Below are positions 1 through 54,973 of a stretch of 64,000 nucleotides of DNA, in pieces. Positions within the stretch are counted from its first letter, which is position 1. Every line of letters starts with the position of its first letter. This DNA is from a virus (Duplodnaviria > Heunggongvirae > Uroviricota > Caudoviricetes): the IMG/VR virus record IMGVR_UViG_3300037471_001733, positions 22,201-86,200 of that record. One strand, 5' to 3'. The notes beneath the pieces were generated by a model. That model did not search any database. It saw only the letters and a program-made list of their open reading frames with translations, and was not told where the DNA came from. The translations under genes and the position numbers were made by a program.

Positions 1-110
1 ACGCCGCCGGCAGGAACTGCCCACGACATGACAGGGAAAAGCACCTGCGCGGGGGCATCGCCGGCACCCTCAATGGATACAGGGCCGACAACAACGGCTT
101 GAAGGGTCAT
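1..110 (-). CDS. hypothetical phage structural protein, N-terminal part only (gene continues left of window)
   Basis: ATG at 110 on minus strand directly downstream of the 117..650 gene, open to window edge; co-oriented with morphogenesis operon. Confidence 0.3.
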   Translation of the reverse strand, partial: MTLQAVVVGPVSIEGAGDAPAQVLFPVMSWAVPAGG

Positions 111-116
111 GGCTGC

Positions 117-650
117 TCAGCTAATTGATGCGACCGTGCCGTCGCTGTTGTAGGTCCACGTCTGCAGCGTCACGCTGCCGCTCGTGACGGTGGAGACTTT
201 CTTTTTGCCGTTAACGGTGGTGTAGTTGACCGTGTAGGTCACGCCGTTGACGGTGTACGTCGCAACGGATTTGTCCGAGTTGTACGTATAGGTTGCGCCG
301 CTATTGATGATCCCCAGCAGCTTCAAATCGGCGGCATTGGTCGTCACCGAGAACCGCTTGGTGCCAGCTGAGAAATTGACCGGCAGCGTGGCGCTGCTAC
401 CGGACTGAGGCGATGTGCGCTCAAACGTATCGCCGCCGAGATACGTTCCCTCGCCGGTCTCCCACTGTCCGGTCGGCTGGTAGTTGGCATCCACGGCCTC
501 ATAGCGGTACGGGATGCGCGCGTTTACCGCAGCAACCGATTGCAGCGTGCGACGGCCCGGGAAAGGCGTCGTGGGGGACAGCGTGACGTTGCCAGTGCCG
601 GTACTTGTGCTCGTCTGAGCCACCGCGTCATGGAATTCCTTGATCGGCAT
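117..650 (-). CDS. Thr/Ser/Gly-rich structural protein (neck/tail-proximal component)
   Basis: 177 aa ORF immediately after head-closure gene; beta-rich T/S/N/G composition typical of virion proteins. Confidence 0.45.
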   Translation of the reverse strand: MPIKEFHDAVAQTSTSTGTGNVTLSPTTPFPGRRTLQSVAAVNARIPYRYEAVDANYQPTGQWETGEGTYLGGDTFERTSPQSGSSATLPVNFSAGTKRFSVTTNAADLKLLGIINSGATYTYNSDKSVATYTVNGVTYTVNYTTVNGKKKVSTVTSGSVTLQTWTYNSDGTVASIS

Positions 651-654
651 GTGT

Positions 655-1017
655 TCAGCTCTTCAGGTTCGTGTTCTCACAAGCCAGGTCGATGAACGCC
701 CTGTCGGAAGTCGGCATGACGGCGCGGATGTCGTAAGGCCTGCCGTCAATGAGCAATCGCATCCCGGCGTCAATACCGGTGCGATGTCGGATGCGCACGG
801 ACGCGCGCACCGTGGAGAGATCTGCGCCGCCCTTCACAGCCTCAAGGCCGTTGACGTGACGCACGTCAGCCCAAAGCCGCGCGATCTCGGTCCAATCGCC
901 GACGACCTCCTGGCCGAAGTCGTCCTTTCCGCTGGGACGCTGTTGCAACGTCACCCGGAAGTTGAAGGCGCCGGCACCCATTAGCCGTAGACCTTGAATG
1001 GTTCCAGCAGTCCGCAC
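655..1017 (-). CDS. head closure / head-tail joining protein (Phage_H_T_join-like)
   Basis: 120 aa; size, position after connector and motif pattern (W..I..LWA.V....G.E.......ST....R.R.R) resemble HK97 gp7/SPP1 gp16-type head-tail joining proteins. Confidence 0.55.
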   Translation of the reverse strand: MRTAGTIQGLRLMGAGAFNFRVTLQQRPSGKDDFGQEVVGDWTEIARLWADVRHVNGLEAVKGGADLSTVRASVRIRHRTGIDAGMRLLIDGRPYDIRAVMPTSDRAFIDLACENTNLKS

Positions 1018-1550
1018 AGATACGGCAGCGCCGTCATCTGCTTGCCTGCAACAGCCTCACGGTTCGCATAGAAGGCGCCGACGTGCAGCAAGATCCACTG
1101 TCGAATGGACTGCGGCACATCTGCGGGGCTGGACCCGAAACCGGCGACGTAGCGCACGCGCACCGTGTTGATTTCGGCGCGCGTCGTCGGCCATGCCTTC
1201 TCGAAGGCTGGCACTAGGTATGCCGGCGACACGTCGTTGCTGTTGTCTAGAACGTAGTCCGCAGGGTCCAGCGTGGCTAGCACGCCGTCCTCATCCACGT
1301 ACTGCAGCGACTCGACGCCCAGCACCCTGGGCCACTCCAGGCGCAGCGCCTCGCCGAATGCGTCCGTCGTCATCTGCCACGTTGTGCTGATGAGCGTGCG
1401 CTGCATCTGGCCTTCGGCAAGTTGCCGAGCGGCGGTTATGAGGCCGCCTATCAGCAAGTCCTCTTCGTCGTGATCGACTCGAAGGTGCAGCTTTGCCTCT
1501 GCGACGCTCACCGGTTCGGTGGTCGCATCCACGAGCTTTACGGTTGACAT
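981..1550 (-). CDS. gp6-like head-tail connector (Phage_connect_1 family)
   Basis: 189 aa; N-terminal 'AEAKLHLRVDHDEEDLLIGGLITAARQLAEGQMQRTLI' is the hallmark of HK97 gp6-like connector proteins. Confidence 0.6.
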   Translation of the reverse strand: MSTVKLVDATTEPVSVAEAKLHLRVDHDEEDLLIGGLITAARQLAEGQMQRTLISTTWQMTTDAFGEALRLEWPRVLGVESLQYVDEDGVLATLDPADYVLDNSNDVSPAYLVPAFEKAWPTTRAEINTVRVRYVAGFGSSPADVPQSIRQWILLHVGAFYANREAVAGKQMTALPYLCGLLEPFKVYG

Positions 1551-1553
1551 GCG

Positions 1554-3239
1554 CTACCTTCTTGGACGCTTCGTGTCGTTCAGACGTGGCGCGAAGCCGC
1601 TGCCGCTCGGAGCGCGGCGATATACCTGCGTCGTGTAGACATAAGCCGACAGTGCCGACTGCTGCGTCGCAGCACGCACTACCACTGCACTCAGAGGCGC
1701 CGAGGCAGAGGCTGCATTGACCACGACGGCCGTGACCGGAACGCTGGCGTTCTGAGCAACCTGCACGATCGTGCTCAGGTCTATCGACGTGCTCACGGGG
1801 TGGCTGGCGTCGATGTAGGCGCTCAGGCCAGAAACAGCCTCTGGCTGGCTCAGAACCCCGACACTGAGACCCGCGCTGCGGGTCATGGTGTCAAGCACCG
1901 CAGCACTGACATCAGCAGCCGCCGTGACGCTGACGGCCTCCATGACCATCAGCGACAAGCCGGCCTGCGTCGACTGTGCCGCCGCGATCACGACGTCAAG
2001 CGCCGTCTCCACCGCCTGCTCAACACTCAGTGCCGCACTCAGCGCGGCCTCGACGGCTTGGGTGACCGATACAGGAACTGACAGCTCTGCCTGGAGCAGC
2101 ATCGGCACGTTGATGCAGACATCCAGCGCTGCCGACGTGACCGGCTGATCAAGAACCGCTACCGAGACCTCGGCAAAAGCTTCAACGGGCGTTTCAATCG
2201 CCGCCGACATCTCCACCGTCAACTCGGGGATGGAGTGGATCTGCAGCGACAGATCGGCCGCTAGGGTGTTGCTGAAGAGCACACCGACGCTGAAGGGGAA
2301 ACTTACCTCCGCGTTGGACACCCGGCTGAAAACCGGCATGCCAACCTGCTCGTGCGCGTAAGTCGCCGCCCAGCCGATGTCGGCCGACCAGGCCAGCGGC
2401 AGCCCTTCGTCATAGAACGGGGTGCCAGGCGTCTGCGGCGGCACCGCACCGAGGCCGCCGAGTTCCAGCACTGCGAGACTGCGGAAGCCGGCGTCCTGTC
2501 GGATGTAGACGCTCAGCCCAGTGTTGGCTGAACGCGCCTCCAGCACTGCTGCGGACAACAGCACCTCTGCCGAGCGCGGCTCGTACACGCTGACCGACAG
2601 CGCTGCATCCAGCGAGGCGCTGCGCTGGTTGAACGCCGGCTGCACACCAAGGGGCTGGTATGCATAGATCGCCGACCAGCCGATGTCCGAGGCCCACGCT
2701 TGCGGAAGGCCCTCATCGTTGGCCGGAACCCGCGGCGTCTGCGGCGGCGCTGCTGAGATGCCGCCGGCTTCAAGTAGCGCCAGGCCGCGGAAACCGCTGG
2801 CCGTGGTGACGATCTGCGCGCTCAGTTCGGCGCTGTTCGTGCGCGCGGCCTGCACCGGCGCCGACAGCGGCGCCGACACAGAGCCGGCCTGCTGGACCGC
2901 TACGGACAGCGCCGCATCAGCCTTGGAGACCGGGACGCTGATTGCGCTAAGGCCGCCAGCCTCCAGCAACGCCAGGCCACGGAAACCGCCTTGCCGAATG
3001 TAGACGCTCAGCGGCGCGCTGAGGGTCACGCCCGTGCGCGGCGCGCTGATGCCGCCCAGCTCCAACAGCGCAACACTGCGCCAGCCGCCGTCCAGACGTA
3101 CCAGCGCGCTCAGCGGCGCGCTGGCCGTGGGCTTTGTGCTGACGGCTACCGAGAGCCCAGCCGAGGTGGTGCGCCCGGGGCCGAGCGCACTGACGCCACC
3201 CAGCTCTGGTAGCGCCAGCGAGCGAAAACCGCCCGCCAC
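1554..3239 (-). CDS. 561-aa tandem-repeat protein (repeat unit F-R-x-L-A-L-L-E-x-G-G-x-S-A ... DEGLPxAW..DIGW), unknown function
   Basis: continuous ORF with at least 5 copies of the FRxLALLExGG motif and two longer ~110-aa repeats; Ala/Ser/Val/Gly-rich. Confidence 0.5.
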   Translation of the reverse strand: MAGGFRSLALPELGGVSALGPGRTTSAGLSVAVSTKPTASAPLSALVRLDGGWRSVALLELGGISAPRTGVTLSAPLSVYIRQGGFRGLALLEAGGLSAISVPVSKADAALSVAVQQAGSVSAPLSAPVQAARTNSAELSAQIVTTASGFRGLALLEAGGISAAPPQTPRVPANDEGLPQAWASDIGWSAIYAYQPLGVQPAFNQRSASLDAALSVSVYEPRSAEVLLSAAVLEARSANTGLSVYIRQDAGFRSLAVLELGGLGAVPPQTPGTPFYDEGLPLAWSADIGWAATYAHEQVGMPVFSRVSNAEVSFPFSVGVLFSNTLAADLSLQIHSIPELTVEMSAAIETPVEAFAEVSVAVLDQPVTSAALDVCINVPMLLQAELSVPVSVTQAVEAALSAALSVEQAVETALDVVIAAAQSTQAGLSLMVMEAVSVTAAADVSAAVLDTMTRSAGLSVGVLSQPEAVSGLSAYIDASHPVSTSIDLSTIVQVAQNASVPVTAVVVNAASASAPLSAVVVRAATQQSALSAYVYTTQVYRRAPSGSGFAPRLNDTKRPRR

Positions 3240-3250
3240 AGTGGGCTACC

Positions 3251-3727
3251 TCAGGCGGCGCCGACGATGGGCACGGCCGCCGCGTCGGTGGTCAACGTCT
3301 GGGTGTACTGAGTCGTGGAGCCATCGGTCTTCTTGACCGTCAGCGTCGCGCCGGAAATGCTGAAGTCAGCGCGCAGGCCGGTGGTCTCAAGCCACTCGGT
3401 GCCTCCCACCAAGCTCTCGTACACGTTCGACGGAACGACCATGTAGTCATGCCACACGGGCAGCGCACCGGTTTCGTTCACTGCCACGCGCAAGCGGCCG
3501 AGAGTACCGGTGTCGGTGGCATTGATGGCCACGCTGTAGTAGCCGTTCTCCATGTGCGTTGCGGTAGTCGTTTCCGACTTTTGCGCGAAGGCTGCGGCGT
3601 TCTTGGACAGGCGGATCTTTGCTTGAGTCAGCGACAGAGCAGTCTCGGCCGTGAAACCATCGGTGCTGTCAACAAACGGACCGAGCACCAGCGTGGCGGC
3701 CGTGGATTGCTTGAGAAGAGTGCTCAT
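3251..3727 (-). CDS. hypothetical virion-associated protein
   Basis: 158 aa ORF, 4-nt overlap with upstream gene, T/A/S-rich. Confidence 0.4.
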   Translation of the reverse strand: MSTLLKQSTAATLVLGPFVDSTDGFTAETALSLTQAKIRLSKNAAAFAQKSETTTATHMENGYYSVAINATDTGTLGRLRVAVNETGALPVWHDYMVVPSNVYESLVGGTEWLETTGLRADFSISGATLTVKKTDGSTTQYTQTLTTDAAAVPIVGAA

Positions 3728-4455
3728 TGCGCGGACCTCAGTCGGAATTGATGCATGGAACGAGGGGCCTGTGACTGGCTGCTGCCGGAGCCGAGAACTT
3801 CGATGGCGGCCAGCGTCCAGGTCTGTGAAGCGGGGGCCGTCATGCCAATCGCGTAGGTGCCAGTGGCGCCTGAATCGGCGTGGTAGCCGTGGTACACGCA
3901 GTACTCGTTGGCCAGTGTGTCGTTGTTCTGCGCAACGGCAGCAGTGCGCTGCGTGAACGTCCCGGCATTGCTGCGGTATGTCTGCGATGTCAACGCAGTG
4001 GCCGCACGGTCGCCGATGAACATCACCGCCGCCGAGTTGGCCCCGGTGGTCGTCAAGTTGACGGACGGAGCCGTGCCGGTACCGGAGCCAGAGACAACGG
4101 CACCGACGCCGCCAGCACTGCGGAACTGGTACGCCGTCGCGCCGAACACGATGCCATCGTCTCCTTCAGTGCCAGCGCCGCGCGAGACCGAGATCGTCAC
4201 GGACGCTGCCGTGGACGCAGTGGCGGTCCAGATGTAGAGCTCAGCGTGCGACGAGTCGACCGCGACGTCCGCGCGTTGCGTGTACGTGTTCGTCGCGCTG
4301 TCGCTAACGACTAGGCCGTCAATGTGCGATTTCAGGGTGCCAATGACGACGATCAGGTCGCCAACCTGCGTCGTGAGCGACATGGTCAGCGCGCTGCCGA
4401 AGGCCTGGGCCCATGTGCTCGTGTTTACGCTGGTGACAAAGGTTGGTGCTGCCAT
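3724..4455 (-). CDS. hypothetical Thr/Ser/Ala-rich protein
   Basis: 243 aa ORF tightly packed in operon. Confidence 0.45.
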   Translation of the reverse strand: MAAPTFVTSVNTSTWAQAFGSALTMSLTTQVGDLIVVIGTLKSHIDGLVVSDSATNTYTQRADVAVDSSHAELYIWTATASTAASVTISVSRGAGTEGDDGIVFGATAYQFRSAGGVGAVVSGSGTGTAPSVNLTTTGANSAAVMFIGDRAATALTSQTYRSNAGTFTQRTAAVAQNNDTLANEYCVYHGYHADSGATGTYAIGMTAPASQTWTLAAIEVLGSGSSQSQAPRSMHQFRLRSAQ

Positions 4456-4457
4456 GG

Positions 4458-5933
4458 TCAGGTTCTCTGGTAAGCGCCGCGGGTCCAGTTGCCAGCCACG
4501 CGCGGGACGCCATCCATGTCGATGTCGTACGGCGCCGCCAAGTCGATGCCGGCCGCAAAGCTGGCGGTGCTGGCGATGTGGTAATCGGCGCCGGCGTAGT
4601 TCTTGAAGATGGACGTCGGCACGCTGAAAATTGCGTTCGTTCCGGAGCCGCTGTAACTCGTGTTCGAAAACGCGTTATGCGACACCACTGAACCGCTTCC
4701 GGCCGTGATGGAGCCGCCGCTACCGATCCAGAGGTTGTTGCGCACGGTGTTGCCGCTGCCGTCCGGGAACTGGATGCCGGCGTTTCCTTCGAGGCCGCGG
4801 ATGAACGTGTTGTTGACGATCACGCAGCCAGTGCCGTTGCCGCCGTTGGTCGGGTTGCCCAGGAAGCCGATGGCGGCATCGCCGACATAGAACGTGTCGA
4901 AGACATTGCCGTACACGAAGATCGCGGGCTTGCGGCTCTGCGAGCGGTTGACGGCCACGGCGATGAGCGCGGTGCCGCCGAGCCCAGACTGGTAGCTGTT
5001 GCGCCAGACGTTGTGCCGAATGACGGTGTCGAACACCGAGAAATACACGTTGACGATTTCGCCGTGGTGCGTGCCGTTGCTCCACGCGTTCTCGCAGGCG
5101 TTGTATTCGATCACGCAGCCATCGGTCTGACGGATGAAGAAGACGTTGCTGCTGCGGTTTATGTAGTTGCGACTGAAGACGATTCCCGTACCCTGAATGT
5201 CGTTCGAGTCTGTATCGAACGTGTACGGCCGGTAGTTGCTGTCGGTCTGCGGGCCAATGCCGTAGCAGTAGCAGCGCGTGATGGTGACGTTGTTGACGGC
5301 TGTGCCGCCGAAGCGGATGTTCTGGCCGCGGGCGTTGCCGCCGGGGCCGGTGGTCGTTCCGTTGCCGCCGGACGTCGAGTGGTCGATGCGGATGCCGTAG
5401 CTGTCGCCGTCGAACCAGTTCAACTCGTTGCGCGTGCCGCCGTCAATGATCCAGTTGCTCGTGTTGATGGTGATCGGTTCGAGCTGGCTGGTGAAGTACG
5501 CCTGGCCGGTGCCGAAGGAATCTGACCAGCCCTGGTTGGTGCCGTGATCCGAGATAGTGGCCTTCTTGATCGTGATGTAGAGCGATCCGTTCGTGGCCGT
5601 GCTCAGCGTGCGCGTGGTGTAGGTACCAGACTTCAGGTAGTACGTGAATCCGCGCTGAAAATTGACTGTGCTCCAGGGCGCCACGTTGTTCCAGTCATCC
5701 CCGGATTGGTCACCAGAGGGCAGCGGACCAACGTACTTGGCATTCGTCGGCGCCTGCGCCTGCTGATCGATCTGCATTGACAGGCCGGCAGATAGAAGCC
5801 GCTGGTACCGCAATGCGAGGGAAAGCGGGCCCGACGCAATGGCGGACGCCGGCTGCGCAAACGACTCCGATGGTCGCTTGCGCTGCGGTCGCCCCATGCC
5901 GGCGCGCACTGCAATGGGCCTGCTGTACGCCAT
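4458..5933 (-). CDS. right-handed parallel beta-helix (pectate-lyase fold) protein, tailspike/depolymerase-like
   Basis: 491 aa; repeated N-x-x-I/V-x-x-N and NNxF/NNxW coils (GNVFDT.., CVIVNNTFIRG.., GNTVRNNLWIG.., VVSHNAFSN..) characteristic of pectin-lyase-fold beta-helix repeats. Confidence 0.6.
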   Translation of the reverse strand: MAYSRPIAVRAGMGRPQRKRPSESFAQPASAIASGPLSLALRYQRLLSAGLSMQIDQQAQAPTNAKYVGPLPSGDQSGDDWNNVAPWSTVNFQRGFTYYLKSGTYTTRTLSTATNGSLYITIKKATISDHGTNQGWSDSFGTGQAYFTSQLEPITINTSNWIIDGGTRNELNWFDGDSYGIRIDHSTSGGNGTTTGPGGNARGQNIRFGGTAVNNVTITRCYCYGIGPQTDSNYRPYTFDTDSNDIQGTGIVFSRNYINRSSNVFFIRQTDGCVIEYNACENAWSNGTHHGEIVNVYFSVFDTVIRHNVWRNSYQSGLGGTALIAVAVNRSQSRKPAIFVYGNVFDTFYVGDAAIGFLGNPTNGGNGTGCVIVNNTFIRGLEGNAGIQFPDGSGNTVRNNLWIGSGGSITAGSGSVVSHNAFSNTSYSGSGTNAIFSVPTSIFKNYAGADYHIASTASFAAGIDLAAPYDIDMDGVPRVAGNWTRGAYQRT

Positions 5934-5936
5934 GAC

Positions 5937-6380
5937 TCAGCCGTCGATCTCTTCGATCGCCAGGTTGATCGTCACGTTGCCCGTGCCGCTGGCACTGCGG
6001 ATGCTGACCTGGCCGCTGACAGGCACCGGGAACTCCCAGCCGGGCGCGGCGACGTACTTGTCGATGCCGCCGTTGGCGTTGGGGCCCATGCGCCACAGGA
6101 TTGCGCCGTCCAGCGTCGGGGCTGCGGCCCAGGTCGTATAGACGCTGAAGGACGCCGCTGCGCTGGACGGGTTCAGCTTGCTGGGCGTGATCGCGCCGCC
6201 GGGCGTCGTGCCTCCGGAACTGCGCTGCACCAGGATTTCGTTGACGGCCGATGCCGTGTCCATCCCTTTGATGTCGATGACGGTGATGCGCAACGGCTTG
6301 GTGGAACTGGCGACGATGGTGAGCAGGTCGGCCGTCGTGCTGAGCGTGGTGCGGGCACGCGAAACTGAGAAGAGAGGCAT
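5937..6380 (-). CDS. hypothetical structural protein
   Basis: 147 aa ORF, 4-nt overlap with the beta-helix gene, S/T/G-rich. Confidence 0.45.
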   Translation of the reverse strand: MPLFSVSRARTTLSTTADLLTIVASSTKPLRITVIDIKGMDTASAVNEILVQRSSGGTTPGGAITPSKLNPSSAAASFSVYTTWAAAPTLDGAILWRMGPNANGGIDKYVAAPGWEFPVPVSGQVSIRSASGTGNVTINLAIEEIDG

Positions 6381-6398
6381 TGCAGGTTCTCCAGAAGA

Positions 6399-6650
6399 TC
6401 AGGGCTGCAGGTCCTGGCGAGACACCACGACCGCCCCGCTTGCGCTATCCACGTAGACACGCACGCCGGCCAGTTCGACCACGACCCACTCGACGTTCGA
6501 CTGAGCCTCCGTCCCGACATCCCTGATGCCGCGGCGGCGGAAGATCGCGCCTTCGGTGTCATGGAGCGCGACACGGACGGAGCCGTTGGACGCTGCGCGC
6601 ATGCCGCTCTGTGCGTCTGCGTCGATTTCGAAGGGGATGGGCTGGGTCAT
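6399..6650 (-). CDS. small hypothetical protein
   Basis: 83 aa ORF between terminator hairpin and the 147 aa gene. Confidence 0.35.
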   Translation of the reverse strand: MTQPIPFEIDADAQSGMRAASNGSVRVALHDTEGAIFRRRGIRDVGTEAQSNVEWVVVELAGVRVYVDSASGAVVVSRQDLQP

Positions 6651-6663
6651 GAGGTGTTGGCGC

Positions 6664-6686
6664 GAAAAAGCCGCCTCGTGGGCGGC
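6664..6686 (-). terminator. rho-independent terminator-like hairpin (GCCGCC-CACGA-GGCGGC + U-run) after the 162-aa gene
   Basis: perfect 6-bp GC stem, T-run on minus strand (A-run 6665-6669 on plus). Confidence 0.5.
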
Positions 6687-6727
6687 TTGTTAGGTGATCC
6701 GTATCTGAGAGCGCTATTAGTTGCGCC

Positions 6728-7216
6728 TCAGACTTCATCCCAGGAAAAGTAGACGCTGTCACCTTGCGCGAGGCCGCCCGTCGCAGTCGACTGCACTTCG
6801 CACATCAGGACCAAGTGGTCGCCCTTTTCGCCAGTGCTCGTGTACGGGCCGGCGCCAAGACTCAGCGCGGAGCCGGACGTGTAGCCAAAGAAGTTGTTGT
6901 AGCCGGTGGTAGCCGTGGCCTCGGCCGGCGTGGCGTAGGTGGTCACGGCCTTTGCCCACAGCAGAACACCGGTGCCCAGGCTGTTGGTGCCGTCGGAGTA
7001 CGCCTTGATGCCGGTGATCTGCGAGTACGTGCCGCCGGTCACCTCCAGGCGCAACCACTTCTCATACGAGAAATCGCTGCCGCTGGTCGGCTTGACCATC
7101 GGGTTGTTCAGATCGACGGCGCTGTTGTCCGCATTTTTGAACCGGATGCCACTGGCCGCGTCCGTCGCGGTTGCACCGGCCCCATTTTTTTGCACGATGC
7201 GAGTCGTTGCGGCCAT
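6728..7216 (-). CDS. hypothetical structural protein (possible decoration/fibre subunit)
   Basis: 162 aa ORF with GAGGAGG RBS, bracketed by two terminator hairpins, T/G/A-rich. Confidence 0.5.
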   Translation of the reverse strand: MAATTRIVQKNGAGATATDAASGIRFKNADNSAVDLNNPMVKPTSGSDFSYEKWLRLEVTGGTYSQITGIKAYSDGTNSLGTGVLLWAKAVTTYATPAEATATTGYNNFFGYTSGSALSLGAGPYTSTGEKGDHLVLMCEVQSTATGGLAQGDSVYFSWDEV

Positions 7217-7226
7217 GTGGCCTCCT

Positions 7227-7252
7227 CAAAAAGAAAAGCCGCCCGAAGGCGG
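7227..7252 (-). terminator. rho-independent terminator (GCCGCC-TTCG-GGCGGC + UUUUCUUUUU) after the 145-aa gene
   Basis: GC stem with tetraloop followed by T-rich run on the minus strand. Confidence 0.55.
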
Positions 7253-7276
7253 CTTGATGGTTGCAAGTGAAGCGGC

Positions 7277-7714
7277 TTAGGCCGGCGTGCTAGCCGGGTG
7301 GCCCTTGATCACGTTCACGGCGATGGGCGTGCCAGCGCCGTGGGTGCCGCTGAAATCAGCGGTGACCTTCAGGTAACGGCGTTCGCCGATGTAGGCCACC
7401 TTGGCGACGGTGGCCGCAGCGTGAGCAGCGGTCAGCGAGCGCACGATGCCGCCGGTGCCCACGCTGGAGTCAGCGTTGGTCAGAAGGCGCACGTCATCAC
7501 TGGTCACGGCGGTGTACGTGGTGTCGTCCTTCGAGTGAGTCAGCAGGAACTCGATCTTGTTGGACGTGGTGAACGTGATGCCGCCGACGCCGACACCGAT
7601 GGAGACAACGGCGCTGTCGAAGCCCTTGAGATCAATGGCAGAGGAGGTCGTGTCGCTGGACAGCGTGGCGTTGAGCGCCGGCACGATGGAGATGTTGTTA
7701 GCGAGGTCTCGCAT
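7277..7714 (-). CDS. hypothetical major structural/decoration-like protein
   Basis: 145 aa ORF directly after the major capsid gene and followed by a strong terminator (pattern of a highly expressed gene). Confidence 0.5.
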   Translation of the reverse strand: MRDLANNISIVPALNATLSSDTTSSAIDLKGFDSAVVSIGVGVGGITFTTSNKIEFLLTHSKDDTTYTAVTSDDVRLLTNADSSVGTGGIVRSLTAAHAAATVAKVAYIGERRYLKVTADFSGTHGAGTPIAVNVIKGHPASTPA

Positions 7715-7785
7715 GACAATTCCTTTGGAAGCCTGGGTGAAGAAAGGCCTGTCAGTGCAGGCCTTTTTCAGTGGTCAGTCGTGGA

Positions 7786-9033
7786 TCAGGACGCGGAAAT
7801 TTTGAGCTTCTTCATCGCGTCGCTCTGACGCACGCCGCCACCGACGCGCTTGCGGGCGCGGTACACCACGAGGCCGTTGTCGGCTTCGGTGATGTAATCG
7901 GCCTGGAAGCCCAGGCCGATGCGATCAACGATGGTGTATGCGCGCTTGAAGTCACCCCACAGCACCGGGTAGGCGCTGGCCGCGATGTCCGGAAGGTCAG
8001 GGAACTCAACGTACGGAGCGCCCAAGATCGTGTTCGCCACGGCGTTGGCGAAGCCAGGGGTCCAGAGGTAGTTGCCTTGGCCGTCCTTAAGCTTGCGGAT
8101 GTCACGGATGGTCTTGCGGTTCAGCGCGAACATCGCGTTGGCAGCGTAGGCCGTCTTCAGCTCGAACTGCAGGTTGATCAGGCCGTCAGACGTGATCTTG
8201 GTAGCGTCGCCGCTGACCACCTCACCGATGCCAGAGGCCACCAGCAGGCCCTCCATTTGCTGAGCGGCGGAGCCAACGCCGTTGATGGACTCGGCGCCTT
8301 CCTTCACGGCCATCTGCTCGGCGACTTCCATGCGCAGCTCGCCAAGGAGGTCGTAGTCCGAATCCTCCAACATCTGTTGCGACACGCGGTTGCGCGCGAA
8401 CATTTCCGGGGCCGTGATCTCGCCCATCCCATACTTGGGATCGGTCGTGTCCGTACGGGTCTCGATTTCACCGACGCGCTTGGCGCTGCCGGTGCCGACA
8501 CGCTTGGGCCACTTGTACGAGTGGCCGCCGATAATGCGCACGGTGGCGAGTCGACGGATGGGCGACTGCTCCACGATGTCCTTGAGGATCGCGCGCTCCA
8601 GATCCGGCGGGGCAAGCAGGTAGCCGGCGGACTGGTCGTCGCCCTTCACCAGAGACGCCATGTGCGTCTTGATGACCTGCATGTCCTCCAGCGAGCGGGC
8701 CTCATGGCGGGTGCGCATCACGCGGTTGAACGCGGCTTGCAGCTTGGCGTTCTCGGCGGCGGAGTCGGCAGCGGTGGAGCCGGGGCGCTGCAGCATGGTC
8801 TGGACTTGATCCAGTTGCTCCTGCATGGCCTTCGCAGCATTCTGCTGGGCCAGCAGTTGCTGGTTCATGTTCTCGTAGCGATCCAGCGTATCGCTGATCG
8901 CCTCGACCTTGGCAGTCAGGTCGCCAACGGCCTTGCCGTCAGCCTTGGCCGAGATGAGCTTGTCGTTGTGCTCACGCAGTTGCGTGACGGCTTCCATTAC
9001 TTCCTGGATGCCATCATTGGTGATGTTGGGCAT
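7786..9033 (-). CDS. major capsid protein, HK97 family
   Basis: 415 aa; N-terminal coiled-coil delta-domain then 'SAGYLLAPPDLERAILKDIVEQSPIRRLATV' HK97-fold signature; position after portal/protease. Confidence 0.85.
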   Translation of the reverse strand: MPNITNDGIQEVMEAVTQLREHNDKLISAKADGKAVGDLTAKVEAISDTLDRYENMNQQLLAQQNAAKAMQEQLDQVQTMLQRPGSTAADSAAENAKLQAAFNRVMRTRHEARSLEDMQVIKTHMASLVKGDDQSAGYLLAPPDLERAILKDIVEQSPIRRLATVRIIGGHSYKWPKRVGTGSAKRVGEIETRTDTTDPKYGMGEITAPEMFARNRVSQQMLEDSDYDLLGELRMEVAEQMAVKEGAESINGVGSAAQQMEGLLVASGIGEVVSGDATKITSDGLINLQFELKTAYAANAMFALNRKTIRDIRKLKDGQGNYLWTPGFANAVANTILGAPYVEFPDLPDIAASAYPVLWGDFKRAYTIVDRIGLGFQADYITEADNGLVVYRARKRVGGGVRQSDAMKKLKISAS

Positions 9034-9051
9034 TTGGATTCCTACAGACGT

Positions 9052-9074
9052 AAAAAAGCCCGCTCGGGGCGGGC
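9052..9074 (-). other. stable stem-loop (GCCCGC-UCGGG-GCGGGC + U6) between protease and capsid genes, immediately upstream of capsid RBS
   Basis: seen in sequence; attenuator/processing hairpin candidate. Confidence 0.35.
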
Positions 9075-9099
9075 TTCGTTGGGCTTGGGGACGGTTTGG

Positions 9100-10182
9100 C
9101 TACTTGCTGATGAGGCTCAGGATGTGGGCCTTCAGGTTCGCCAGCTCGGTTGCGCTTTGCTCGTCACGAGCAGGCGCGGCCGGAGCCGCAGGTGCGGCAG
9201 CGGCGGGTTCCCGAGACTCGTCGCGAGGCCCGGTGTGCAGCGCGGCCTTGGCCAGTGCGATGACGCACTTGGCCTCGGCCGCAGAAAGGCCAACCGCATC
9301 ACGCAGTTGGCGCTCAAGGATGCGGACCTCAGGCGTGCCGTCGTCGTCGCCGGCAGGCACGAGGTCTTGCGGGGTGTTCTTGAAGAAGGGCAGCATGGCC
9401 GAGCGCGCATGCGTCAGCGCGGCCTTCTTCTCCTTCTTCTTGGCCGGCACCATCGTGTCGGCGAATCCTTTGTCCACGGCGTCCTGGCCGCGGAACCACG
9501 TTTCGGCGTCAACCCACGAGGCGATTTCGGCGCGGTCGCCACCGGTGCGCGCGACGTAGATGTCGATGAGGCCGGCTTCCAGCGTGTCCAGCACGTCGGC
9601 TTCCTTGCGCAGGGCCTTGGCGTTGCCGGCGAGAATCGTCCACGGCGCGTGGATCATGAAGTTCGCGCCTTCAGCGATGCGGATCTCGTCGCCGGCCATC
9701 GCAATTACGGAAGCGATGCTGGCGGCAATGCCATCGACGTGCACGATGATCTTGGCCTTGTGCGTGGCCAGCGCGTTGTAGATGCTGACGCCGTCGAACA
9801 CGGACCCGCCTGGCGAGTTGATGTGTACGTGCAGCTCATCAGCATCCAGCGCGGCGAGTTCGCGCACTGTGTCCTCGGCATTAACGCCGCCGTCCCAGTA
9901 GCCGCCGATGTCGCCGTATACAAACAGCTTCGGCGCTTCGCCTTCGTCGGCGGCCAAGCGCAGGTGGCCAGGGCCCAGCGCGCGCGGCGCCAGATTCATT
10001 GCCCGCTCGGGCAGGCCGGCGAGATTGATGACGGGTTTGGTCATTGCGGCCGTCCCTTCCTCATTGCTTTCTTGTTCCTCGCCCAACTCGGAGAGGACTG
10101 CGGCCAGCGACACCTGAGCGTCGCGGATGCGAGATTCGTTGCGGGCGCTCAGCACGCGCCCGGCGTTCAGACGTTGGCCCAT
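9100..10182 (-). CDS. prohead protease (ClpP/S14-like) fused to C-terminal scaffold-like domain
   Basis: 360 aa; 'INSPGGSVFDGVSIYNAL...HVDGIAASIASVIAMAGDEIRIAEGANFMIHAPW' ClpP-type serine protease core; Ala/Pro/Glu-rich C-terminus. Confidence 0.8.
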   Translation of the reverse strand: MGQRLNAGRVLSARNESRIRDAQVSLAAVLSELGEEQESNEEGTAAMTKPVINLAGLPERAMNLAPRALGPGHLRLAADEGEAPKLFVYGDIGGYWDGGVNAEDTVRELAALDADELHVHINSPGGSVFDGVSIYNALATHKAKIIVHVDGIAASIASVIAMAGDEIRIAEGANFMIHAPWTILAGNAKALRKEADVLDTLEAGLIDIYVARTGGDRAEIASWVDAETWFRGQDAVDKGFADTMVPAKKKEKKAALTHARSAMLPFFKNTPQDLVPAGDDDGTPEVRILERQLRDAVGLSAAEAKCVIALAKAALHTGPRDESREPAAAAPAAPAAPARDEQSATELANLKAHILSLISK

Positions 10183-10185
10183 GGG

Positions 10186-11481
10186 CTACCCTTGGTTGCG
10201 CGCTGAAAGCGCTTGACTGGATGCCGCCAAGTCGTTGTTGTCTTGCTGTGCCGGGGCCGCGCCAGCGGGGTTGCTTGGCATGCCTAATTCCGGATCAGAG
10301 GCGTCGCCCATGTTCACGGGCGCGCGGTAGATTTCGCCGCCCTCGTACGGGTTCTGCTCCTCGTAGGCGCGGATCTCGTTCGCGTTGAGCGCGCCCATCT
10401 GCCAGAGGCGGAAGTAGTACTCGGCGCGGTCACGCGCGGCGCCGCGCATCAAGGCATTGGCGTTGAACTTCGCGTAGATACCGTCGTCCAGGTCACGCTC
10501 GCTAAGCAGGTTGCAGTCGATGCTCTGCTCGATGCGTTCGTACCAAGGCGCCAGGCAGTGCACCACGTGCGCCAGGAACATCTGCTCCGCGCTGGCGTAA
10601 GTGGCCGTCTTGTCGCTGTAGCCGACCATCAGTGGCGCGCACCTAAAAATTCTGCACACCTCTTCGATCTGGTGACGTCTCGTTTCGAGATGCTGGCTAT
10701 CAACGCCCGTCATCGACGTCGGCACAAACTTGGCGCCGCGGTCAAGAATCATCGGGCGGAATCTCGCTTCGCCTGTCATGTTCTTCTCGACCCAGTTGCG
10801 CAGAGCAAGGAACTGGTCCGGAAGCAGCTTGTCGTCCACGCTGTAGATGCCAGTGGACTGCGCGCCATTGGCATGCATCAGCGCATGCGCCTCTTCGGTC
10901 GCCATCGCAAGGCCTATGGCCTCGCGAGCCAACTGCAACGGCTTTAGGCCGTCATAGCCGTTCCAACTCAGCCCTTTGACGTGCCAGATCGCCTCAGCCG
11001 GGAAGTCCTGCGACTGCCCAGTGATCTCGCTGCTTACGCGGTACACCGGCCGGCGGAACTGGTCCACATCCACGCACACCTCGTGCGGGAGAAACGGGAT
11101 CAACTCGCGGATCTTGCCGTTGACGACGTTCTTGAACGCCACGAAACGACCGGCCAAGCACACATGCGCGGCCAGCATCTCGCGGAACTCGAAGGACGTC
11201 TGCCAAGGGTTCGGCCGGCGGTACAGCACGCGATACAGCGGGTGGTCCTTCGCCGGATCGCTGCCGCCGTCGTCACGCTCCTTGTAGAGCTTCAAGGGCA
11301 CCTGCGCGATGCCCTCGGCAATCACGCGCACGCACGCCAGGACCGTCGTCACCTGCAGCGCGGTTTCCACCGTGACGTTCTGACCCGAACGCGACGCAGG
11401 AAACCAGCCGCTCCAGAAAGGCTCAGTGAACGCCTGCGCCCGGCGCTGCCGCGGCGCCATCATCTTCGACAGGAAACTCAC
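10186..11481 (-). CDS. portal protein, HK97 family
   Basis: 431 aa; Phage_portal pattern, located between large terminase and protease. Confidence 0.85.
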   Translation of the reverse strand: MSFLSKMMAPRQRRAQAFTEPFWSGWFPASRSGQNVTVETALQVTTVLACVRVIAEGIAQVPLKLYKERDDGGSDPAKDHPLYRVLYRRPNPWQTSFEFREMLAAHVCLAGRFVAFKNVVNGKIRELIPFLPHEVCVDVDQFRRPVYRVSSEITGQSQDFPAEAIWHVKGLSWNGYDGLKPLQLAREAIGLAMATEEAHALMHANGAQSTGIYSVDDKLLPDQFLALRNWVEKNMTGEARFRPMILDRGAKFVPTSMTGVDSQHLETRRHQIEEVCRIFRCAPLMVGYSDKTATYASAEQMFLAHVVHCLAPWYERIEQSIDCNLLSERDLDDGIYAKFNANALMRGAARDRAEYYFRLWQMGALNANEIRAYEEQNPYEGGEIYRAPVNMGDASDPELGMPSNPAGAAPAQQDNNDLAASSQALSARNQG

Positions 11482-11756
11482 TCGGCAGCCTTCCCGTCAC
11501 CGGCACGCGCGCGGATGCCCATCAGGCCCAGGCCCAGCGCCAGCAAGCCGCCGACGATGAAGCCAGCCGGCAGGGAGTACAGGCCGGTGCCATAGGCAAC
11601 AGCCCCGGCGCCGCCCAGCGCCAGCATGTCCGGCATCAGAAAGGCCAACAGTTCGCCGCCGGCCGCAATCAGGCCCAGCATGGCGCGGCCAAGGGTCAAC
11701 ATTCGGCGGGCCAGAAATGTCCTGGCACCGGCGATCTTCGTTCGCAGGTTTTTCAC
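11478..11756 (-). CDS. small membrane protein (hypothetical)
   Basis: 92 aa ORF with two hydrophobic helices between terminase and portal; overlaps both neighbours by 4 nt. Confidence 0.35.
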   Translation of the reverse strand: MKNLRTKIAGARTFLARRMLTLGRAMLGLIAAGGELLAFLMPDMLALGGAGAVAYGTGLYSLPAGFIVGGLLALGLGLMGIRARAGDGKAAE

Positions 11757-13513
11757 GGCGTCAGGACTTCCCAGAATGACTTTCCAGTGGACTCGGTGGT
11801 TCTGGACATCAAGCCCACGGCCATCACAGCCGCCACGATGAGGTCGATGCGGCCCGTGGCCTTTTCCTTGCTGAGCTTGCGGTTCTCGGCGTCATCCATC
11901 ACCGTCACCGCGTTGCTCGCACACCAGTTGAAAACTGGGTGGTCGTTGTGCGCCAACTCGTTGTTGAGCAGCATTCGCTCGAACTCTTCAACGGCTGGCG
12001 AAGCCTCTTTGTAACCTTGCCCGAACGCGACCATGGGCGGTAGGCTGATGCCTTCGTCGTCGGCAAGCGCCAGCAAGTCTTCGATGCGCCAGCGGTCGTA
12101 TGCGACGCCCTGGATCTCGAATGCCTCGGACAGCGCGGACAGCCGCTGCAGCACGTTGCGCTTGCTGATCGCGCGCCCCGGCGTGGTGTCCAAGTGCCCG
12201 GCAGCTTTCCACTGCACGTAGGGCACTCGATCGGTTTCGGCCTTCTTCTGCAGCCCCTCATCAGGCAGCCAGGCGAACGGCACTAGGTGCCACGGCTCGC
12301 CTTCCTCTTGCGGCTCAACCAGCAGCACCAGCCCCGTAAGGTCGGTGGTGGACGACAGGTCCAGCCCGGCCCAGGCTCGCCGGCCGCGCAGGTCTTGCCA
12401 GTTGAAGGTGCGAATCGCACTCTTCCAAACGTCGGCCGACAGCCACGGCGAATCGGCATCCGTCCACTGGCAGAAATTCAGCCGGCGGACGATCGCCTCC
12501 TTAGACGGCATGCCGCGCGCTTCGGTCACCTGCTCGCGCAGGTACTTCATGCCCGGCAGATCGGCGTCCTGCAGCGAAGGGTTGGCCTTCACCCAGCACG
12601 ACTCGTCCGAGAAAGGATCCTCGCCTTCATCTAGGGCGCACACGAAACTGAAGAACGCATCGTCCTCCAGCGTCCCCGCTGCGACCTTTGCGCCGTACTC
12701 GTGGTACGCCCAGCACGGCCCCCGTTTGTCGGAGCCGCTGTTGGTGATCATGAAGATCAGCGCCTGCCGCCGGCTCTTGGTGCCGGCGCGCATCATCTCC
12801 ACGACCGTGTTGGTCTTGTGCTCGTGCAGCTCGTCGATGAGCGCAATGTGCGGCCGCGGGCCGGACTGCCCATCGTCCGAGCTGATCGGGCGGAAGAAGC
12901 TGCCGGCCTGCAGGTAGGCCAGGTTCCACACCCGCTCGCCCGTGCCGCTCTTGGTCAGCCGCTTAGCGAGTTCCGGCGACTGGTCCACCATGGCCACCGC
13001 GTCGCGGAAGAGGATCATGGCCTGATCCTTCTTCGTCGCCGCAGCGTAGACCTCTGCGCGCGCCTCGCTGTCGGCGGTCAGGCCAAGAAGCCCAATGCCC
13101 GCCGAAAGGGGCGACTTCCCGGAGCCCTTGGCCGTCTCGACGTAGGCAACACGGAACCGCCGCCAGCCGTCAGAACCCTTCCAGCCGAACAGACTGCCGA
13201 TGACGAATTTCTGCCACGGCAGAAGCTCGAAGGGCTTTCCCTCAAAGTCGCCGCCGTTGAGCTTCAGGACGTTGCGGTAGTACCGCAGCGCCTTCAGGGC
13301 GGTCTCCAGGTCCCAATTCAGGCCGCGTGCCGGGCCTTTCTCCAGGTCGCGCAGGTGGCGCGCGCATGCCGCGCGCACATGCGGGCCGGCGATGCGTTTG
13401 CCGTCAACGACGGATTGGGCGTACTCGGTGACCGGATCGTCACCAGTCGGGACGTCAGCCGAAGAATTCCTGTAAGTGGTCTTCCTTTTGGTCGTCGTCG
13501 GCGTTTTGGACAT
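11753..13513 (-). CDS. terminase large subunit (Terminase_1 family)
   Basis: 586 aa; Walker A 'VETAKGSGKS', 'ALIDELHEH' and C-terminal nuclease region. Confidence 0.85.
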   Translation of the reverse strand: MSKTPTTTKRKTTYRNSSADVPTGDDPVTEYAQSVVDGKRIAGPHVRAACARHLRDLEKGPARGLNWDLETALKALRYYRNVLKLNGGDFEGKPFELLPWQKFVIGSLFGWKGSDGWRRFRVAYVETAKGSGKSPLSAGIGLLGLTADSEARAEVYAAATKKDQAMILFRDAVAMVDQSPELAKRLTKSGTGERVWNLAYLQAGSFFRPISSDDGQSGPRPHIALIDELHEHKTNTVVEMMRAGTKSRRQALIFMITNSGSDKRGPCWAYHEYGAKVAAGTLEDDAFFSFVCALDEGEDPFSDESCWVKANPSLQDADLPGMKYLREQVTEARGMPSKEAIVRRLNFCQWTDADSPWLSADVWKSAIRTFNWQDLRGRRAWAGLDLSSTTDLTGLVLLVEPQEEGEPWHLVPFAWLPDEGLQKKAETDRVPYVQWKAAGHLDTTPGRAISKRNVLQRLSALSEAFEIQGVAYDRWRIEDLLALADDEGISLPPMVAFGQGYKEASPAVEEFERMLLNNELAHNDHPVFNWCASNAVTVMDDAENRKLSKEKATGRIDLIVAAVMAVGLMSRTTESTGKSFWEVLTP

Positions 13514-13955
13514 GAACCTTGGACCTCGCGGCCGGCGTCAGCCCGAACTCGACCAGCCACGCCTTGAAGCGCCGGTCGGCATCGGCCAGCATGGCCACCG
13601 CCGGGTTCGCTTTGATGCTGCGGTCGCCCTGCGTGTTCGTTGTTTCGTAGGTAGGGCCGTCCTGGTTCACCAGTTCCTGATACCGCAGGATCTCGGCGTA
13701 CACGGCGCAGCCTCTCTCAAGGGCGTAGGCATCGGCCTCGGTTAGCACGCCCATCCGATCCAGCAGCACAGACATGCGGCCCCAGGCAACCTTGGCCTCG
13801 TCGGACAAGTGGCTGGGGCAACTAGGTATCTCGCGGCGTGGTTTGGGCTCGCTCTTGTTGAGCGCGCGCCTTCCCGGGTTGCCTGTAACTATTTTTAAGT
13901 GGCTCGGTTTTGGCCTGCGCCCCGCCATATCTCTATTCCTTGACTGGCCAGCCAT
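13455..13955 (-). CDS. terminase small subunit, P27 family
   Basis: 166 aa; 'KPSHLKIVTGNPGRRALN' N-terminus typical of P27-family TerS; precedes TerL. Confidence 0.7.
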   Translation of the reverse strand: MAGQSRNRDMAGRRPKPSHLKIVTGNPGRRALNKSEPKPRREIPSCPSHLSDEAKVAWGRMSVLLDRMGVLTEADAYALERGCAVYAEILRYQELVNQDGPTYETTNTQGDRSIKANPAVAMLADADRRFKAWLVEFGLTPAARSKVHVQNADDDQKEDHLQEFFG

Positions 13956-14214
13956 CCACCCCGATCACCGGCCGAACTCGATGACCTAGATCTCGCGCCG
14001 TTTTGTCACGGTGACAGGGGGTACATAGCCCCTGAGCCTGGCCCGGGTCTTCGTGGAAGTCCTTGCCGCCGTTGACTAGCGCGACTTTGTGGTCCAACTG
14101 AGTTGCGGCAGCAAGTCGGCCATGGCGTGAGCACTCAGCACAAAGCGGGTTCAGCCGCAAGTAGTAGTCGCGGAACCGCTGCAGCGGGCGGCCACGCAAG
14201 CGATCAGTGGCCAT
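13933..14214 (-). CDS. HNH endonuclease (terminase-associated)
   Basis: 93 aa; CxxC ... DHKVAL..GG ... CxxCH HNH motif; directly upstream of TerS. Confidence 0.7.
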   Translation of the reverse strand: MATDRLRGRPLQRFRDYYLRLNPLCAECSRHGRLAAATQLDHKVALVNGGKDFHEDPGQAQGLCTPCHRDKTARDLGHRVRPVIGVDGWPVKE

Positions 14215-14552: not shown

Positions 14553-15449
14553 CTATAACCCCAACTGCAGTTGACCAAGAGACTTGCTTCCCTTGGACCG
14601 GTTGCACCCAAAGCACTCGCACTGCGTGTTGCTATAGCTGTGTGGACCTCCATCGCGCAGGCTGACAACGTGACCAAGCTCCGGTGCGCCCTCAATCCTC
14701 TTGCCCATCTTCGACCTCGGCGTCTTAATGCCGCAAATCTTGCAGCGCCAGCCGTCGCGCTCAAAGACAGACAGCTTGTCCACCTTCTCGTACTCGCAGC
14801 CGAACTTTCTGGCGCGACGCCGATGCGTGGTGCCGCTAGTGGCTCTGTAACGGTAGCTCAGCTGACAGGCTATCGAGCAGTACTTTTGGCGCAGGTCGCC
14901 ATAGTCCGGCGTGAACGCAACTTCGCAGAAGCCGCACTTGCGAGGCGACCGGTCGCGGCTACGCTCTTGCTTCTTCCGATTGTAAACCTTGCTCCTGCAT
15001 TTGCTGCTACAGAAGTTCGCATCCGGCATCTTGGCCATGAAGTCGCGCCCGCAGGACGGGCTGGCGCAGACCCTGGCATAGCGCAGCTTATTCTGGCCGC
15101 GCTCCTTTTTCTCCGGCGCTGGAACGCACTCATAGCAGAACTTGCGCGGCTTGCCGTTCTTAAATAGTGGCTTTGGGTGGCGGCAGCCGTTTTCATTCCG
15201 GGTCCTGCACTCGTCGGAGCAATGACTGCGGCGCAGCTTCGTCGGCTTGAAGGGCATTCCACAGTAGGCGCATAACCGCGGCGGTTTCGGAGGCACGGGC
15301 GGATTCTTCCGTGGTCGTCCAGCGCCAGGACGGCGGCCGCCAGAGTTTGGACGCGGGCCACCGCGCTTTGAACGCGACGCCTCGACCAGTGCGCATAGCG
15401 CGCCTTTGCAGCCGCCAACAGACAGCCGCCTATACTCGCCTTCAACCAT
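14553..15449 (-). CDS. multi-zinc-ribbon protein with C-terminal HNH endonuclease domain
   Basis: 298 aa; at least 6 CxxC pairs, C-terminal 'ELGHVVSLRDGG...CECFGCNRSKGSK' HNH motif; AGGAAG RBS. Confidence 0.65.
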   Translation of the reverse strand: MVEGEYRRLSVGGCKGALCALVEASRSKRGGPRPNSGGRRPGAGRPRKNPPVPPKPPRLCAYCGMPFKPTKLRRSHCSDECRTRNENGCRHPKPLFKNGKPRKFCYECVPAPEKKERGQNKLRYARVCASPSCGRDFMAKMPDANFCSSKCRSKVYNRKKQERSRDRSPRKCGFCEVAFTPDYGDLRQKYCSIACQLSYRYRATSGTTHRRRARKFGCEYEKVDKLSVFERDGWRCKICGIKTPRSKMGKRIEGAPELGHVVSLRDGGPHSYSNTQCECFGCNRSKGSKSLGQLQLGL

Positions 15450-54965: not shown

Positions 54966-54973
54966 CGAGCACC

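Follow-up and report, generated by a model that had tools for sequence, protein, structure and literature searches.

The host range of tailed phages and their penetration of capsule or extracellular polysaccharide (EPS) are usually credited to tail-tip proteins. In branched tailspike systems (CBA120 TSP1-4, G7C gp63.1/gp66, the K1-5/SP6 adaptor), conserved adaptors carry exchangeable beta-helix depolymerases by means of short terminal docking segments; these systems are located at the tail tip, their genes belong to the tail-fibre region, and their N-terminal anchors are homologous to T4 gp10 or T7 gp17. In the lactococcal neck passage structure (NPS; phage TP901-1 and the 936 group), a conserved N-terminal beta-sandwich resembling BppU-N forms a collar at the connector, and the variable distal parts are carbohydrate-binding modules (CBMs), beta-helices like those of pectin or alginate lyases, or carbohydrate esterases; expression of the NPS together with the capsid is reported, and attachment to the portal has been proposed (PMC6669499). 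In the Ralstonia podophage GP4, small Ig-like adapters ring the head-to-tail adaptor and hold several sets of fibres (PMC11445570). The fibre of the Anabaena myophage A-1(L), made of gp80-gp82, self-assembles from several gene products, is hooked to the neck by an N-terminal beta domain of about 125 residues, ends in a CBM and is encoded separately from the tail genes (PMC10966104). Here we analyse eight genes, A to H, that lie between the genes for the HK97-type major capsid protein (MCP) and the gp6-like head-tail adaptor of a prophage of the tailed viruses (Caudoviricetes). The stretch of DNA analysed, called the window below, comprises 64,000 nucleotides (positions 22,201 to 86,200 of IMG/VR record IMGVR_UViG_3300037471_001733). 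Our reading, to which we give a probability of roughly 0.55, is that B to H encode a modular accessory appendage that binds and cuts glycans, probably at the portal vertex or neck, and that A is a decoration-type head protein.

The eight open reading frames (ORFs) occupy window positions 1554-7714 on the minus strand, with sizes in amino acids (aa) and positions as the preliminary description of the locus had given them. Every gene in window bases 1-14,200 has the same orientation, in the classical late-operon order:

13933-14214, minus strand: HNH gene
13455-13955, minus strand: small terminase
11753-13513, minus strand: large terminase (TerL)
11478-11756, minus strand: 92-aa ORF, rich in Gly, Ala and Leu, between large terminase and portal
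10186-11481, minus strand: portal
9100-10182, minus strand: ClpP-type protease
7786-9033, minus strand: HK97 MCP (TIGR01554, E=8e-88)
7277-7714, minus strand: A145, 145 aa
6728-7216, minus strand: B162, 162 aa
6399-6650, minus strand: C83, 83 aa
5937-6380, minus strand: D147, 147 aa
4458-5933, minus strand: E491, 491 aa
3724-4455, minus strand: F243, 243 aa
3251-3727, minus strand: G158, 158 aa
1554-3239, minus strand: H561, 561 aa
981-1550, minus strand: head-tail adaptor Ad1 (gp6-like; PF05135, E=1.8e-7; phrog_442, E=5.8e-27), right border of the cassette
655-1017, minus strand: head closure protein Hc1 (PF05521, E=2.6e-23; phrog_25)
117-650, minus strand: K177, which opens a second fibre-like insertion, located between Hc1 and the Ne1/terminator genes and running past the left end of the window

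All eight ORFs passed the GC3 test (the genome has 63-65% GC) and all have conserved homologues in syntenic position (more than 1000 for A, more than 1000 for G, 58 for E, and several loci for each of B, C, D, F and H). A to H are therefore real genes and not chance ORFs. From D to K the genes are separated by gaps of 2-18 nt or overlap, which suggests translational coupling. Thr, Ser and Gly together make up a fraction of 0.31-0.35 of A, B, D, E, F and G; for H the value is 0.25, for C 0.20, and for the terminase, portal, protease and MCP 0.15-0.20. The label 'Thr/Ser/Gly-rich', originally applied to the whole cassette, thus suits six of the eight products and not H or C. None of A to H matched Pfam, NCBIfam or PADLOC, and their PHROG matches were confined to families of unknown function, as expected of the undescribed families that had been supposed here.

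The same insertion, which the preliminary description had proposed to look for in related prophages, was found with the same gene order in two Logan contigs (L002 and L005), two IMG/VR contigs (L047 and L059) and a prophage of Azohydromonas lata NBRC 102462 (L043). Identities given below are those of each relative's protein to the window protein. In L047 and L059, the upstream block gave 86-89% for TerL and 30% for the portal, with neither the MCP nor A detectable; the cassette gave 94% for B, 77% for C, 93% for D, 91% for E, 95% for F, 91% for G and 67% for H; and the downstream genes gave 66% for Ad1, 51% for Hc1 and 54% for K. The corresponding values for L043 were 28% for the MCP, about 25% for A, 88% for B, 72% for C, 77% for D, 72% for G and 73% for Ad1. 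Because A diverges with the MCP while B to H stay similar beside an unrelated MCP and a portal of 30% identity, these identities indicate a block of two parts: A, which goes with the head genes, and B to H, a portable module that is exchanged horizontally. The eight genes had been taken for a single unit, a view that has to be abandoned for A. Within the module, D and G hold 59-93% identity while E, F and H drop to about 30% or become undetectable. The change from TerL to the adjacent portal (window 11753-13513 and 10186-11481; L059 132-2905) is itself a sharp mosaic boundary.

Hairpins accompany the start of the cassette. Strong terminators had been claimed after the first two genes, and a hairpin with a T-run is indeed present after each of A and B, and another after the MCP gene:

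7745-7764, minus strand: GC hairpin AGGCCTG-CACTGA-CAGGCCT, then a T-rich run, just past the MCP stop
7236-7255, minus strand: terminator-like hairpin AAGCCGCC-TTCG-GGCGGCTT with T-run and GGAGG, after A, at the left border of the mobile module
7226-7255, minus strand: GCCGCCTTCGGGCGGC border element (also at about 7115-7150 in L047, 5160-5200 in L005, 2380-2420 in L043 and 10465-10510 in L002)
6668-6688, minus strand: terminator-like hairpin AAGCCGCC-CACGA-GGCGGCTT with T-run, after B (fold of -23.5 kcal/mol)

The intergenic region after the MCP gene folds at -19.0 kcal/mol, and similar hairpins follow the MCP gene in L005 and L002. The hairpin after B is kept in L047 and absent from L005 and L043, where B and C abut. 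A nearly identical element, GCCGCCTTCGGGCGGC followed by a T-run and GGAGG, precedes the B-position gene on its 5' side in five lineages that have different head modules; it may double as an attenuator and a recombination joint at which modules are exchanged.

Comparison of the loci marks the junction between MCP/A and the connector as an apparent hot spot of insertion. An HNH_3 homing endonuclease gene lies between B and C in L164 (6382-7041), and two endonucleases flank the A-like gene of Rhizobium phage RHph_X2_25 (L159, 15386-17582); homing endonucleases at or beside the junction are consistent with a recombination-prone site. In the uncultured siphovirus MW202897 (L046, 12532-15969), the junction holds another insert, of four genes; its products have 112, 46, 275 and 708 aa, and the annotation of the 708-aa product is GDSL-like esterase.

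The behaviour of A145 is that of a head gene. It has more than 1000 homologues, all unnamed, and falls in phrog_5707 (unknown function). In the loci compared its gene always directly follows the MCP gene, and its identity tracks that of the MCP: A shows 77-82% where the MCP shows 60-68% (L002, L005), and 25-44% where the MCP shows about 28-34% (44% for A in L015, about 25% in L043). Co-inheritance of A with the MCP type was seen in L002, L005, L015, L046 and L043; with the other, L059-type MCP, A is swapped out and an unrelated 149-aa protein holds its place. In L015, MW202613 and RHph_X2_25, an A-like gene lies between MCP and adaptor without the cassette, the connector coming next, or with one small ORF or homing endonucleases in between. 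These three loci justify the word 'inserted' that had been used of the cassette. A profile built from 40 A sequences gave a marginal match (E=0.011) to PDB 8cjz_B, a 'Capsid Decoration Protein' of 130 aa; the 77 residues aligned, in the C-terminal part of the profile, include the Y..G..RYL...SGT block. The size of 8cjz chain B is similar to that of A145, whose gene directly follows that of the MCP, whereas the 8cjz MCP was not among the sequence matches of the window MCP. The capsid-decoration role suggested earlier for the cassette is, as far as its first gene goes, in line with these results, and A145 is probably a decoration or cement-type protein belonging to the portal-protease-MCP head block.

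Genes of the D, beta-helix, F, G and H types form a core that was also found in phages with other head genes. This core occurs in five head-gene backgrounds, nearly always within the head/neck cluster; its sites are after the MCP gene (in three HK97 subtypes and in Mu-F/Phage_portal_3 phages), after the SU10-type portal gene, between lambda-type TerL and gpW/portal, and upstream of TerL. Gene orders of representative loci are given below, with the module in brackets and unnamed products denoted by length in aa (TMP, tape-measure protein):

L160, SU10-like podophage: TerL, SU10_portal, [153, 192, 612, 229 (F-like), G, 820, 109], scaffold, SU10_MCP, SU10_adaptor
L053: TerL, portal, [D, 276 ...], scaffold, MCP
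L058, lambda-like: TerL, [PF23140-like/phrog_240 'head protein', 633, D, E-like 515, 536], gpW-like joining protein, portal, protease-MCP
L165: [133, D, 812, 224 (F-like), G, 555], TerL
L166, Mu-F/Phage_portal_3 siphophage: MCP, small ORFs, [488, 71, 233 (F-like), G, 228, 218, 491], neck genes, terminator, tube, TMP

Relatives of D keep 59-93% identity over at least 30 loci, including otherwise unrelated phages, and the D gene is always 5' of a gene for a large variable protein; its contexts include portal-D-276 (SU10-like), TerL-[gp80-like]-633-D-[E-like]-536-gpW-portal (lambda-like) and D-812-224-G-555-TerL. G has more than 1000 full-length relatives, and more than 150 further IMG/VR proteins share just its N-terminal 110 or so residues. 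The exceptions to placement in the head cluster are the Microcystis podophage PP496355, in which a G-like gene ends the tail-fibre region, and L162, in which the module adjoins replication genes. Taken together, the annotated contexts place the module in the terminase-portal-capsid-neck cluster, at different sites. B to H neither co-vary with one capsid lineage nor are restricted to it, and the core genes go with at least five head types. A metagenome scan with D returned mostly short contigs. The D/G cassettes of SU10-like and lambda-like phages recurrently open with a gene for a 153-158-aa protein of phrog_26662 (unknown function; L160 6373-6834, L056 452-913, and L064), a family that may be a third alternative in the B slot beside B162 and the protein resembling GP4 fibre I.

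The preliminary description had called the 491-aa product a beta-helix, and prediction and fold search agree on this. AlphaFold2 modelled E491 (49-sequence alignment; pLDDT 85, pTM 0.85) as a right-handed parallel beta-helix over residues 62-490; residues 1-60 were modelled at low confidence, with a helix at 36-49. Foldseek gave 33 PDB matches at E<=1e-3, at about 10-16% identity to all templates. The top neighbours were GH136 lacto-N-biosidases (5e-7) and the pectate lyase Pel9A of family PL9 (2.6e-6), and others were the Det7 and HK620 tailspikes, PL6 alginate lyases, a rhamnogalacturonan lyase and phi29 gp12. The model thus points to a beta-helix of the glycosidase, lyase or tailspike type, and to E491 as a predicted enzyme. 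E491 itself matched no Pfam family at E<0.1; its 58 homologues, some of which carry PF13229, are mostly bacterial, many with a signal-peptide-like N-terminus. At its own N-terminus, E491 has a conserved basic segment (MAY.RP.AVRAGMGRP.R.RP) and two 14-residue 'LS' units, the building unit of H. Its identity is 28-39% in relatives whose D and G hold 61-77%.

For G158, the predicted fold (pLDDT 88.7) consists of an Ig-like beta-sandwich (residues 1-98), a helix and a small beta domain. A fold search returned generic Ig neighbours only, the phage ones being 80alpha fibre proteins and the N-domain of TP901-1 BppU. The G N-domain heads proteins of 115-1083 aa with variable C-termini, and in several of 39 longer G-domain proteins it forms the N-terminal part of a fusion with a Pel9A-like, Beta_helix, DUF1565 or NosD beta-helix, a Rosetta-stone link between G and enzymes of the E type. 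As an N-terminal module the domain is widespread among fibre and beta-helix proteins of phages, which makes G a candidate anchor or adaptor; D147, as a core member, is a candidate adaptor or hub. F-position proteins (224-243 aa in the window, L043, L164, L165, L056 and L160) have in common a basic C-terminal tail, QAPRSMHQFRLR (QAPRSMH.FR.R), which is conserved in at least five contexts on bodies that are weakly related (pairwise E 3e-6 to 5e-3). The counterpart in L162 has a weak Laminin_G_3 match, and F243 is a candidate exchangeable binding subunit.

H561 had been described as a tandem-repeat gene. This applies only in part: TRF found no tandem repeat in the DNA, whereas the protein shows a 14-residue 'LS' periodicity of degenerate form, contains GGFRSLALLELGG five times and carries a DEGLPxAW block in duplicate. 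The C-terminal motif Y.RAP.G.GF...RPRR recurs in the last cassette gene of L005, L043 and L002 and, in relaxed form, of L047, and an N-terminal GGFRS-type motif is common to the H-position proteins of L166, L057 and L056. The middle of the protein is hypervariable, and only six relatives were found at E<1e-3 among 1.84 billion representatives. H561 is a long repeat protein and a candidate fibre shaft. In the PDB it matches designed 'Pizza' propellers (E=1e-7, residues 46-121); we attribute this to a repeat or composition effect because the GGFRS motifs are irregularly spaced.

B162, flanked by hairpins on both sides, shows 75-94% identity in L005, L043, L047 and L051. It has no Pfam, PHROG or PDB match, does not reach the PF23140 gathering threshold and gave a negative hhalign comparison with the GP4-like protein. 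The B slot is filled in L002 by a 215-aa PF23140 protein (E=1.4e-22, 80.8 bits, cut-off 27), for which tblastn found no match in cultured phages, and in L058 by the PF23140-like/phrog_240 'head protein'. C83 holds the same position in L005, L043, L047 and L051 at 32-77% identity and has no Pfam or PHROG family match. Sequence and profile searches of the PDB with B, D, E, F, G and K gave no match.

Conserved small subunits (D, G and probably B) together with fast-evolving large ones (E, F and H), short conserved terminal peptides and an enzyme of tailspike fold are typical of receptor-binding appendages, and it is for these four features that we favour an appendage. E would be its enzymatic blade, a beta-helix glycosidase or lyase in which a short basic N-terminal docking segment replaces a secretion signal. 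H would form a long fibre of 14-residue repeats and F an exchangeable binding subunit, while D and G, as conserved small beta-sandwich proteins, would act as hub or adaptors that grip the variable subunits by their short conserved basic terminal peptides. B, which would be produced in larger amounts, could be a base or ring, and C a small helper. Expression of the complex would accompany that of the head genes, and in the particle it would sit on the head side in the manner of a collar with whiskers, with the surroundings of the portal vertex or neck as the most probable site. From this position it would make a reversible first contact with the host and locally degrade capsule, EPS or O-antigen, with DNA delivery still passing through the ordinary siphovirus tail. 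Head-side mounting fits best and is supported by precedents, among them the Ig-like adapter ring of GP4 and the neck fibres of A-1(L). The likeness to these is one of functional analogy and not of membership.

Each described system also differs from the locus. G-domain proteins have an NPS-like architecture, with a conserved N-domain of about 110 aa and a variable C-terminus that is sometimes a beta-helix. The NPS, however, is one polypeptide whose gene follows the baseplate genes, whereas the functions are spread here over five to seven genes between the capsid and adaptor genes, and the likeness in fold between G and NPS/BppU is at the level of a generic Ig domain only. Fibre I of GP4 (gp80, PF23140) corresponds to the PF23140 protein in the B slot of the sister cassettes L002 and L058, but GP4 is a podophage and B162 of the window has no PF23140 match. 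The A-1(L) fibre needs a special pentadecameric adaptor and lacks an enzyme. No homology of the module to the T4 gp10 or T7 gp17 anchors of branched tailspike systems turned up, no search aimed at it having been made.

Several observations weigh against the appendage reading. By hhalign, G matches the N-termini of the TP901-1 NPS and BppU with a probability below 1%, and neither D nor G has sequence similarity to the A-1(L) neck fibre protein gp82; the fold of G is a generic Ig sandwich without a specific structural neighbour. The E value that links A to decoration proteins is 0.011. Ad1 identity among cassette carriers is only 45-73%, the core also occurs with unrelated neck proteins, and no docking partner co-varies cleanly with the module. 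Nucleotide and protein searches of 50,697 phage records found no cultured relatives of the B-position protein, D or K, and a single match to G, in a Microcystis podophage at the end of the tail-fibre region. The tail genes of the window element are read from relatives. Finally, we infer virion association, subunit roles, neck location and substrate from the genes, the form in which the module is known here. A long (189-aa) adaptor was also considered as a trait of cassette carriers and rejected, as equally long adaptors occur without the cassette in L015 and RHph_X2_25.

The alternative that survives best puts B to H on the HK97-type shell itself, at hexamer centres, three-fold sites or vertices, so that fibres and depolymerase would be spread over the whole head. 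The module does follow the MCP and the decoration-like A in the head cluster, and the hairpins that follow A and B suggest expression that is graded and high, as in the case of abundant proteins of the shell. G is moreover Ig-like, a trait of Hoc as well and, as cited in PMC9509320, of epsilon15 gp10 and of the phi29 head fibre at its base, and the B-slot protein of L058 matches the phrog_240 'head protein'. A lattice-specific binder should, however, co-vary with the MCP as A does, whereas B to G are kept beside three MCP types unrelated by BLAST and the core also goes with SU10-type, lambda-type and Mu-F-type heads. Nor did hhalign find any relation among A, B and D that would make them paralogous decoration proteins. 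Since B to H, unlike A, are independent of the MCP lineage, and since the core also occurs in podophages and lambda-like phages, the capsid-borne system of the preliminary description is weakened for B to H, and we regard a lattice decoration as unlikely.

Less probable still are side fibres or tailspikes mounted on the tail, as accessory receptor-binding proteins of baseplate or tail tip whose genes merely happen to lie in the head cluster. E is tailspike-like, D has a weak match to a tail-fibre PHROG (E=0.017), and in Microcystis phage Mvi-Yong1342-1 the tail module ends in the G-like gene, which follows the gene for a protein of 849 aa. Against a tail-tip location stands the presence of the module in the head/neck clusters of both podophages and siphophages, whose tail tips are unrelated; apart from the Microcystis podophage and L162 with its replication genes, all annotated contexts lie within the terminase-portal-capsid-neck cluster. 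About as improbable is a set that is not bound to the virion, whether a soluble depolymerase/lectin complex freed at lysis or a lysogenic-conversion (moron) set that modifies the cell surface: knowledge of the module from genes alone, the mostly secreted bacterial beta-helix relatives of E and the movement of the module independently of all structural genes would suit it, but the genes are co-oriented and tightly spaced with late structural genes in a region that has no promoter-like site of their own, E has a conserved docking-type N-terminus in place of a signal peptide, the conserved terminal peptides of E, F and H and the fusions of G domains to long fibres speak for products that are built into a larger structure, and neither A to H nor K has a PADLOC match that would mark a defence-system protein.

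The appendage reading also has a bolder form, which we offer tentatively and consider doubtful. The D/beta-helix/F/G/H core would then be an autonomous plug-in appendage that moves among unrelated tailed phages and docks generically, through basic terminal peptides and a D/G hub on the portal vertex. If so, it would be an unrecognised and widespread head-side organelle of host recognition, through which host range could change with the tail untouched. Even as a portable glycan appendage of the head/neck cluster, the module would, if our reading is true, help to determine adsorption in many environmental phages and prophages in a way that has been overlooked. The conserved adaptors of the module occur in very different phage types (G alone has its more than 1000 homologues), and several large 'hypothetical' families of phage dark matter would receive names. 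Adaptor domains, docking peptides and an unclassified family of beta-helix enzymes would become new parts for host-range engineering. If the proteins are not on the particle, the finding shrinks to a mobile depolymerase operon, which is less surprising.

As the window's own tail genes lie beyond its left end, tail content was read from the relatives. In L043 and L059, Hc1 is followed by a K177 homologue and three further products, 123, 178 and about 815 aa long, of which the longest has SWM_repeat and Big_13 domains; only after these come an HK97-gp10-like Ne1, a gp17-type tail terminator, a putative tube, a tail assembly chaperone (TAC) pair (PF08748, DUF1799) and, with more than 1300 aa, a tape measure. 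Because relatives carry the tail module after both sets, the element is, to judge by their gene content, an ordinary siphovirus that has two additional sets of genes among its neck genes. It had been considered that A to H might be ordinary tail genes with the connector transposed; a full tail module downstream of the cassette in L043 and L059 shows that they are not, and none of A to H matched a Pfam or PHROG family of tail completion, terminator, tube, chaperone or tape-measure proteins. A podovirus with a short tail was likewise rejected, as the relatives hold a full siphovirus tail module.

The second fibre-like insertion occupies window 1-650 (minus strand), L043 9995-13899 and L059 13100-17021. 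K177 homologues (53-72%) in L002, L005, L043 and L047 are followed there by the 123-, 178- and roughly 815-aa proteins, and the window reaches into the gene of the 123-aa homologue, whose start occupies bases 1-116. A genome-collection scan with K gave one locus only, that of Azohydromonas lata. L002 and L043 have, within their first cassette, a protein of 292-293 aa that likewise carries the K-type motif TTTGTGN.TLS at its N-terminus. The Ad1 and Hc1 ORFs as listed share 37 nt (981-1017, minus strand), and the listed Hc1 start is a GTG; the true start may sit further downstream. On the other side of the head block, the 92-aa ORF at 11478-11756 has a counterpart at the same place in L002 and L005, with 51-69% identity over part of its length.

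No tRNA genes were found in the window. Between 14553 and 56038 it is phage-like and not host chromosome, with the following genes:

14553-15449: HNH protein
31457-32527: SPFH/Band 7 protein
41577-42734: HTH_36 protein
50382-51374: RecT
54917-56038: RdgC

Within this part, the GC content climbs to 0.69 at 20-22 kb and drops to 0.58 at 22-24 kb.

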